A stretch of 64,000 bases of DNA, from assembly GCF_022846255.1 (NCBI RefSeq), contig NZ_AP025682.1. One strand, 5' to 3'. Positions 5,529-38,288 of the stretch are shown piece after piece. Position numbers and translations under genes: made by a program. The stretch is from Escherichia coli. Its GTDB lineage: Bacteria; Pseudomonadota; Gammaproteobacteria; Enterobacterales; Enterobacteriaceae. The notes beneath the pieces are model-generated. The model ran no database searches. It was not told the origin of the DNA and saw only the letters and a program-made list of their open reading frames with translations. How positions within the stretch are numbered: the first letter of the stretch is position 1; each line of letters opens with the position of its first letter.

Positions 5529-5604
<76 letters not shown>

Positions 5605-5639
5605 TTGGGTGGTCTGTGCTTTACAGCACTTTCAAATTT

Positions 5640-5715
<76 letters not shown>

Positions 5716-5872
5716 TTAATCTTCGTCTTTCGAACCGCTACTGCCTTGGCTGCCTTCACTCACCTTAGTCACTTACTTTTGTAAGCTCCCAAGGATTCGT
5801 TCAGTTGCCGCCTTGTCGCAATTCGAAATACTGCGATTGGGTGGTCTGTGCTTTGCAGCACTTTTCAAATTT

Positions 5873-5948
<76 letters not shown>

Positions 5949-21132: not shown

Positions 21133-21450
21133 TTAGTGAGTGCTGAGTTTCAGACCAATAATCCCCAATACGATTAACGCCAGACTCGCCAGGCGCATCG
21201 GGTTAGCGGACTCGCCGAGCAGCACAATGCCGGTGATGGCCGCGCCGACTGCGCCAATACCCGTCCACACGGCATAAGCCGTCCCTACTGGTAACGATTT
21301 CATCGCCCAGGCAAGTAGCGCCATACTGACAATCATCGCCGTCACAGTAATAACACTTGGCGTCAAACGACTAAAGCCGTGGGTATATTTCAGGCCAACG
21401 GCCCATACCACTTCCAGCAGGCCAGCAATAACTAAGATAATCCAGGACAT
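21133..21450 (-). CDS. gdx: guanidinium exporter Gdx (SugE), SMR family
   Basis: ORF track 21133..21513; 105-aa 4-TM product from [26 protein letters not shown]... Confidence 0.88.
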
Positions 21451-21465
21451 ATCAGGCTCCGGAGA

Positions 21466-21516
21466 ATTGGGGCCGTCCCCGGTGAAAAGAGGCGTTTGCA
21501 GGTCGTCCTGCAAAGC
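21466..21516 (-). promoter_or_regulatory. guanidine-II (mini-ykkC) riboswitch in the gdx leader
   Basis: Two hairpins with ACGR loops on the gdx-sense strand: TTTGCAGG-ACGA-CCTGCAAA and GGGG-ACGG-CCCC, just upstream of the gdx start. Confidence 0.65.
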
Positions 21517-21624
21517 TGATGGTTGAACGGATATTTTGCCAGGTGGCAGGGGAATTTCAACTATTACCTTTGTGACTATCGCAAAAAAACAAACGGCACG
21601 ACATAACTGTCGTACCGTTATTGC

Positions 21625-21771
21625 TTACTGCTGCGCTTTCGTTGCTGCGCCAGAAATCGCGTTACCGCCATCAGAAATGTCTTCACCAACGCCACGCGTG
21701 GTGTTGCAGGCAGTTAATACTGTTGAAAGCACCAGAACAGAAAAGATCGCTGCAATTGTCTTCTTCACCAT
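21625..21771 (-). CDS. ecnB: entericidin B lipoprotein (48 aa)
   Basis: Hand translation [48 protein letters not shown] with lipobox LTAC; below the 60-aa ORF-track cutoff. Confidence 0.75.
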
Positions 21772-21882
21772 AACGTCTTCCTTTTAGGTAATGTTATTTA
21801 TGTTTGCCTATAGCAAATTAATAATAGACAACATCACCAAAAATGATGGAAATCTGATGATTTTTCGGAGGAGAAGAAAAAA

Positions 21883-22008
21883 TTAGCTGGCAGCGCGGGA
21901 GATGGAGTTGCCGAGATGTTTGATATCTTCGCCGAAACCGCGAGCGGTGTTACAGCCCGTGAGCAGCGCGCTGGCAAGCAAAACAAGAACGATAAGGCGT
22001 TTCATCAT
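21883..22008 (-). CDS. ecnA: entericidin A lipoprotein (41 aa)
   Basis: Hand translation MMKRLIVLVLLASALLTGCNTARGFGEDIKHLGNSISRAAS with lipobox LTGC. Confidence 0.75.
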   Translation of the reverse strand: MMKRLIVLVLLASALLTGCNTARGFGEDIKHLGNSISRAAS

Positions 22009-35385: not shown

Positions 35386-35461
35386 GCCCGGATAGCTCAG
35401 TCGGTAGAGCAGGGGATTGAAAATCCCCGTGTCCTTGGTTCGATTCCGAGTCCGGGCACCA
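35386..35461 (+). tRNA. pheU: tRNA-Phe (anticodon GAA)
   Basis: GCCCGGATAGCTCAGTCGGTAGAGCAGGGGATTGAAAATCCCCGTGTCCTTGGTTCGATTCCGAGTCCGGGCACCA (76 nt); symbol by position downstream of yjdC. Confidence 0.92.
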
Positions 35462-37731: not shown

Positions 37732-38025
37732 ACCTTATCCTTATACTTGGTTATAATAAATGGCAAAACATATTTCTATAATACTGCTTCACCACAATAA
37801 ACACTGGCCCGCTATTTAAATACCCTGCAGGAAAACACGAATACATTAAGTCCCCCAACAGGACACATATAAATATTTAAATGCTTCCACCAGTGATATT
37901 TTAATGTACAGTCAACTACAACAGTAGCTGCCCGTTCATTAAACTTAACGTTCAATATATTTTCACAGATACTTAGCTACATATGTTCCATAACAGACGT
38001 CCACTTTTTGATGAAAAGGTGGACA

Positions 38026-38071
38026 CTGCATCACCAATACAAGTTTAACTGCATCACCAATACAAGTTTAA
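38026..38071. repeat. perfect tandem duplication of a 23-bp unit (CTGCATCACCAATACAAGTTTAA x2)
   Basis: Seen directly in the AT-rich spacer between the afaD-like and afaE-like genes. Confidence 0.8.
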
Positions 38072-38288
38072 TGGCTACATACGGCACTCAGTTTACACTT
38101 ACATTACATATGCATTTTAACACATCAACTATAACACCTTTATTTAAGTCTGTTGTGGACCATAGAATATGGTAAATTACAACAAGCAAAATAAAGTTAT
38201 ACATGCTTTTATAAAATAACATGCTATTTTAGAGGGCAGCCATTGACAACTGAATAGTTACTTTATTAGCATAAAGAAATTATGAATA

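Follow-up and report, generated by a model that had tools for sequence, protein, structure and literature searches.

In the Escherichia coli DNA analysed here, a stretch of 64,000 nucleotides referred to below as the window, the 5′ leader of gdx (sugE) carries a guanidine-II (mini-ykkC) riboswitch. Taken whole, with the mechanism proposed below, the best explanation of the region is the chromosomal E. coli guanidine-II riboswitch of the gdx leader, at a probability of about 0.93. The element is already known and the E. coli copy itself is well studied, since the same aptamer has been examined by NMR and SAXS and by smFRET, and both a deletion and reviews have been published. The remaining question is mechanistic, namely which strand sequesters the Shine-Dalgarno (SD) sequence.

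Identity and setting of the riboswitch

When the whole window was scanned on both strands with 4227 Rfam families, RF01068 (Guanidine-II/mini-ykkC) matched the minus strand at 21514..21468 over the full model, positions 1-48 of 48, scoring 50.4 bits where the gathering score is 32 (E = 5.2e-7). In a local rescan the E-value was 6.5e-9, and no second Rfam family was found within 800 nt of the match. A first-pass annotation made from the sequence had proposed this riboswitch at 21466-21516, an interval that encloses the Rfam match, and had named a scan with the Rfam mini-ykkC covariance model as the check; the score above gathering and the SugE/Gdx gene downstream bear the identification out. 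The annotation had named no strand for the element, which lies on the minus strand. The two hairpins that it described, with ACGA and ACGG loops, are both present in the sequence and in the Rfam alignment. It had placed them immediately upstream of an SMR exporter gene; an SMR gene does follow, but 18 nt, including the SD, intervene.

The minus-strand leader from 21530 to 21440 reads CCGUUCAACCAUCAGC-UUUGCAGGACGACCUGCAAA-CGCCUCUUUUCACC-GGGGACGGCCCC-AAUUCUCC-GGAG-CCUGAU-AUGUCCUGG, and its features are collected in Table 1. In both hairpins G-C pairs close an ACGR tetraloop (GG-ACGR-CC), and the element sits in a 5′ leader adjoining the ribosome-binding site (RBS) of a SugE/Gdx gene, as expected of the class. 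Linkers between the hairpins of guanidine-II riboswitches range from roughly 7 to 40 nt. Here the linker has 14 nt, compared with 9-36 nt among the matches listed from the pattern scan described below. A search of the window for the bare motif GGACGRCC-N10-40-GGACGRCC finds a single copy, and none of 100 dinucleotide shuffles contains it. On folding, the pairs of P1 have probabilities of 0.78-1.0.

Table 1. Features of the gdx leader and adjoining sequence, in window coordinates.
Feature	Position	Strand	Basis
Intrinsic terminator of ecnB, 12-bp stem then U run	21592..21619	-	Terminator scan
Putative promoter TTGAAA-16 nt-(TG)CAAAAT, sigma-70-like, extended -10	21533..21560	-	Consensus scan only
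Guanidine-II aptamer (P1 + linker + P2)	21468..21514	-	Rfam RF01068, 50.4 bits
P1 hairpin UUUGCAGG-ACGA-CCUGCAAA, 8 bp, ACGA loop	21495..21514	-	Sequence
Linker CGCCUCUUUUCACC, 14 nt; carries CCUCU, the anti-SD as drawn in the literature	21481..21494	-	Sequence
P2 hairpin GGGG-ACGG-CCCC, 4 bp, ACGG loop	21469..21480	-	Sequence and Rfam alignment
Shine-Dalgarno GGAG, 8 nt past P2	21460..21457	-	Sequence
SD plus CC, candidate partner of P2 3′ half GGCCCC (21474..21469)	21455..21460	-	ViennaRNA pair probabilities
GUCCU (G of AUG + Ser2 codon UCC + U), predicted partner of P2 5′ half GGGAC (21479..21475)	21444..21448	-	E. coli MFE
gdx (sugE) CDS, 105 aa, guanidinium/H+ antiporter, SMR family	21133..21450	-	NF008512; RefSeq sugE

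All defining features are shared with the E. coli sugE/gdx representative of guanidine-II, from which the aptamer does not differ, and the 91-nt leader is identical to that of K-12. Compared with many other E. coli, the window strain differs only outside the element, or has the K-12 allele at a linker polymorphism. The guanidine-I (ykkC), -III and -IV riboswitches have the same ligand, the same gene classes (Gdx/SugE and guanidine carboxylase operons) and the same ON logic, with folds unrelated to that of guanidine-II; guanidine-I and -IV act on transcription termination and guanidine-III through a pseudoknot and RNase E access (PMC12186494). None of these three families was matched in the Rfam scan of the 64 kb.

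The window is E. coli chromosome with the gene order ampC-blc-sugE(gdx)-ecnB-ecnA-efp-epmB. The AUG of gdx (21450..21448, minus strand) lies 18 nt past the end of P2, as set by its position and that of the SD at 21460..21457. The 105-aa product scores 193.5 bits against the NCBIfam equivalog NF008512 (SugE), for which the cut-off is 126, and EmrE and Qac profiles reach 43-75 bits, all under their own cut-offs; with the SugE/Gdx profile above its cut-off and better than EmrE/Qac, the product is of the Gdx subtype. Its closest solved structures are the SMR transporters 6WK5/8VXU (E about 1e-32; 1.5e-32 for the 6WK5 family), with EmrE structures far behind at about 1e-10.

That the hairpins resemble the class by chance, or belong to an extended coding sequence, is extremely improbable. 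An in-frame ORF beginning with TTG (21513..21133, 126 aa) does span them in the ORF list, but positions 1-104 of the SugE profile align from the ATG at 21450, where the RefSeq start is also placed, and the spacers between P2 and AUG in relatives differ by non-multiples of 3. Chance is made unlikely by the E-value of 5e-7, the 0 of 100 shuffles and the covariation in the stem.

The terminator of ecnB is the 5′ boundary of the gdx unit, which is probably transcribed from its own promoter 3′ of that terminator. The putative promoter has a predicted start near 21526, about 12 nt ahead of P1, and the Citrobacter-type plasmid copy of the leader has a similar -10. The upstream gene ecnB was identified by NF007487. 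It belongs to the entericidin pair ecnA/ecnB (lipoproteins of 41 and 48 aa, toxin and antitoxin; 21625-22008, minus strand), which lies immediately upstream of gdx on the same strand, with the strong terminator between. According to a review, ecnB, not sugE, may account for the original "suppressor of groEL" phenotype (PMC12186494).

In the RefSeq (PGAP) record NZ_CP116067.1, which is 100% identical over the 561-nt region and in which the Rfam model scores above the gathering threshold, no riboswitch or regulatory feature is marked between ecnB and sugE (3938227-3938400, equivalent to window 21451-21624). The riboswitch is still worth annotating, because the RefSeq record examined leaves the element unmarked.

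Elsewhere in the window, a tRNA-Phe gene at 35386-35461 is followed by a mosaic island (35386-60000) with an integrase, an afa-8-type afimbrial adhesin operon, IS elements and nanX/nanY. The island also contains the AfaR sRNA within the afa-8-type operon (37974-38230, 270 bits) and isrC (44410-44532). Among complete E. coli genomes none covers at least 80% of window 35386-60000, and in the otherwise identical strain DETEC-S792 the site is occupied by another island, which has helicase, TerB-domain and AbiEii genes. The minus strand at 5529-5948 holds three tRNA-Gly(GCC) genes in tandem, each with 69.1 bits to the Rfam tRNA model; they are the ordinary glyV-X-Y cluster.

Distribution and natural variation

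Of 5426 complete E. coli genomes, 5424 have the 561-nt region. Among the 5412 E. coli records that match the 91-nt leader, 3152, K-12 included, show 100% identity to it. Two polymorphisms are common in E. coli: C to G in the linker at window 21491 (RNA C40) and C to U in the spacer at window 21464 (C67). The former changed CCUCU to CGUCU in all four variant genomes sampled, and two of these had both changes. In 6 of the 5412 records less than 80% of the leader is covered. In E. coli strain 167, a urine isolate (NZ_CM132950.1; L127), there is a natural 29-nt deletion corresponding to window 21493..21465, which removes the linker, P2 and AAUU, so that P1 is followed directly by CUCCGGAGCCUGAUAUG. 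It resembles a laboratory deletion, ZX-1, that has been reported to be constitutive and is considered below.

A scan for the pattern GGACGACC-N12-40-GGGGACGRCCCC, with one genome per species, gave at least 120 loci in many phyla. Among the matches listed, a Gdx-like gene is directly 3′ on the same strand for 78 of 127. Pairs 3-6 of P1, those left free by the search pattern, are 88-99% paired with many pair types in the 72 distinct hairpins among the matches listed. P2 pairing in relatives is uninformative, because P2 is fixed by the search patterns. In 19 leaders from Enterobacterales, 97.8% of aptamer cells (P1 + P2) are paired and 6 of the 8 P1 pairs show compensatory changes on both sides; the covariation score of P1 in these leaders was reached by 0 of 500 shuffles, and no slid register came close. 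A Citrobacter-type blc-sugE segment found on 684 plasmids retains the riboswitch.

Two loci, in Rahnella aquatilis pKM12v2 (L255) and A. baumannii (L256), have two short hairpins with GGACGACC or GGAACGACC cores upstream of SMR genes. These hairpins are 90 nt upstream of the gdx-like genes and fall short of the Rfam gathering threshold; possibly they are guanidine-II variants, degenerate or with short stems, that escape the curated model. At other loci (L011, L022, L025, L079, L096 and L103), mainly from Actinomadura, Streptomonospora and Propionibacteriaceae, with L096 from a Devosia MAG, the pattern occurs two to three times per locus or ahead of non-SMR ORFs of up to about 418 aa. These loci presumably belong to carboxylase or other guanidine-metabolism operons.

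The ON state and the strand that sequesters the SD

NMR and SAXS studies of the E. coli sugE aptamer (49-nt; KD about 133 µM) placed the ACGA loop on P1 and the ACGG loop on P2 (PMC9300104), and the same assignment within a guanidine-II riboswitch was made in a study of caesium resistance (PMC13064478). The aptamer has also been studied by smFRET and simulation (PMC9094411), where the crystal structure 5NDI of E. coli P1 is cited. Guanidinium binding in the loops and the P1-P2 kissing complex have been published for the E. coli aptamer (PMC9300104; PMC9094411). As established in the literature, guanidinium binds the ACGR tetraloops and promotes loop-loop "kissing" of P1 and P2 through C-G pairs; this is predicted to make the SD accessible and so to turn on translation of the guanidinium exporter. 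In published structures of the ligand-bound state, two guanidinium ions stabilise the kissing complex.

An ON switch of gdx translation is predicted in the literature and has indirect support in E. coli. The class is predicted to be translational (PMC5558903; PMC12186494), and reviews list E. coli among the guanidine-II hosts and regard the class as a translational switch predicted to turn genes ON (PMC12186494). In the caesium-resistant E. coli mutant ZX-1 a 20-bp deletion, AGAATTGGGGCCGTCCCCGG, was found in the gdx leader; gdx expression was constitutive in the mutant and induced by guanidinium in the wild type (PMC13064478). These in vivo data are indirect, consisting of RNA-seq with n=1 per condition and growth phenotypes (PMC13064478). 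The 20-bp deletion corresponds exactly to window 21463-21482, so that P2 is lost and the linker and SD are kept.

The leader might instead work as a transcription attenuator, with P1 and the U-rich tract after it forming an intrinsic terminator, and the terminator scan does flag P1 plus CGCCUCUUUU. This is very improbable. The U run begins 6 nt past the P1 stem, and relatives lack a U-rich linker (for example cgcaucacucauc). Stabilisation of P1 by the ligand would switch the gene OFF, contrary to the known logic; moreover, P1 is present in both states and therefore could not switch. The literature also treats the class as translational (PMC5558903; PMC12186494).

With translational control as the preferred reading, two strands come into question for closing the SD. 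On ligand-free folding the SD is sequestered. In the ViennaRNA ensemble P1 is stable and P2 only about 0.15 populated; the SD guanines pair with the 3′ arm of P2, and the CC that follows GGAG with the loop G and R (0.63-0.69). A further helix in the E. coli MFE structure joins GGGAC of P2 to GUCCU at the start codon. The ligand-free OFF state in E. coli and close relatives would then be mainly one with an opened P2. Bases G and R of the loop, together with CCCC, make up its 3′ half, which would pair with GG-A-GCC, the SD plus two bases; for the 5′ half, the start-codon region GUCCU is a possible partner. Closing of P2 for the kissing complex would directly release the RBS.

That the anti-SD in E. 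coli and close relatives is the P2 hairpin, not the linker, is put at close to, but not above, an even chance. The P2 3′ half is favoured by folding, by polymorphism within E. coli, by the ZX-1 deletion from the literature and by limited covariation; together these are suggestive, and do not prove it. The main competitor is the same riboswitch with the pyrimidine-rich linker (CCUCU) pairing GGAG in the OFF state, P1-P2 kissing then removing the linker from the SD. We consider this unlikely for E. coli, and mixtures or kinetic mechanisms make up the remainder. These weights reflect the support from folding and covariation set against its limits.

The linker anti-SD was published as the model for P. 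aeruginosa (PMC5558903) and has been redrawn for E. coli (PMC9300104; PMC9094411); linkers are indeed pyrimidine-rich, with a mean of 66-72% C+U. In E. coli, however, the complementarity of linker and SD amounts to only 4 bp, one of them G.U, and the predicted pairing between them is about 0. Removal of CCUCU in silico leaves the SD closed, with an opening cost of 5.2 kcal/mol compared to 5.3 kcal/mol in the wild type. The CCUCU sequence is polymorphic within E. coli and poorly conserved in close relatives. In silico, the opening cost is 0.8 kcal/mol after the CC following the SD is changed to AA, and 3.8 kcal/mol with the ZX-1 deletion. Since ZX-1 is reported to be constitutive with linker and SD intact (PMC13064478), the mutant fits an anti-SD in P2 better than one in the linker.

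An arrangement similar to the P2 anti-SD has been proposed for Gloeobacter violaceus, in which an alternative stem-loop over P2 and the ribosome-binding site is exclusive with the folded aptamer (Huang, Wang & Lilley 2017, PMC5486947). Its logic is the same as that of the OFF state inferred for E. coli; it concerns another species and was given in one sentence, without comparative or mutational support. The E. coli literature, unlike this proposal, draws the linker as anti-SD.

For comparison, 131 Gdx-linked leaders from genome and metagenome scans were folded and the predicted partner of the SD recorded. The P2 3′ arm was the dominant partner in 81 of the 131 and the linker in 24, mostly from distant taxa. 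Among close relatives the P2 3′ arm dominated in 51 of 61 leaders, with a mean of 0.78 compared to 0.08 for the linker; the linker was the predicted partner in 19 of 70 leaders from distant taxa. A G-rich SD will almost automatically pair with a CCCC arm.

More specific is the covariation in close relatives of loop position R4 with the base after GGAG, which is G:C in 45 leaders and A:U in 6. All 45 close relatives with an ACGG loop have GGAGC, and in relatives with an ACGA loop the base after GGAG is U in 6, C in 3 and G in 3. Fisher tests of the association gave p from 0.009 to 9e-5 with clusters by Gdx identity, by which phylogeny is not fully controlled. The covariation score observed was reached by 1 of 500 shuffles in an SD-anchored, artificial alignment (A2), which was used for the formal count because the MAFFT alignment (A1) misregisters the SD region. 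This is a single covarying base pair for the OFF state, in 2-3 (perhaps) independent lineages, and three ACGA-loop lineages (L134, L202 and Budvicia L104) have an A.C mismatch. Outside the close relatives the R4-swap test gave an equivocal 20 versus 17; a class-wide R4:Y5 covariation was not supported there, and the pair is kept as a clade-level lead. When P1 and P2 were enforced, the opening cost of the SD was 4.4 compared to 5.3 kcal/mol, a small fall because some pairing of the SD with early coding sequence persists in the enforced model.

Pairing of the P2 5′ half at the start codon was examined through codon 2. In riboswitch-linked gdx genes Ser2 is UCC in 79 of 86 UCN cases, and its third position is C in 92% compared with 20-66% at control four-fold sites, a modest excess. 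For window 21442-21450 and 156 related leaders, codon 2 is Ser-UCC in 88%, versus 13% of Ser codons elsewhere in the same genes. An external control, made up of a viral-contig scan with 2 loci and 9 plasmid homologues with only two Ser2 genes, was uninformative. The UCC bias is consistent with GUCCU:GGGAC pairing and lends it weak support. The preference for UCN over AGY at Ser2 was rejected as pairing evidence: the codon family used is frozen at each site, and Ser42 is just as firmly fixed as AGY. This codon-family inertia also accounts for most of the difference between 88% and 13%, whereas the third-position excess is notable.

Also set aside was an OFF state of two helices in which the linker pairs the P2 5′ arm. 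It is among the E. coli suboptimal structures and has an ensemble probability of 0.01-0.04 across leaders; a state resembling it was simulated in PMC9094411.

Significance

As a discovery the element carries little weight, being a member of an Rfam family and among the best-studied small riboswitches. Its modest residual value lies in a testable refinement of the expression platform and in the natural riboswitch-deletion allele of a clinical isolate. The exporter under its control has been linked to tolerance of guanidinium, quaternary ammonium compounds, ionic liquids and caesium, and the riboswitch moves with blc-sugE on CMY-2-type resistance plasmids. If the P2 hairpin is the anti-SD, the nucleotides engaged in guanidinium binding and in the kissing pairs would compete directly with SD sequestration, and natural deletions of the P2 segment, as in strain 167, would be constitutive gdx-up alleles.
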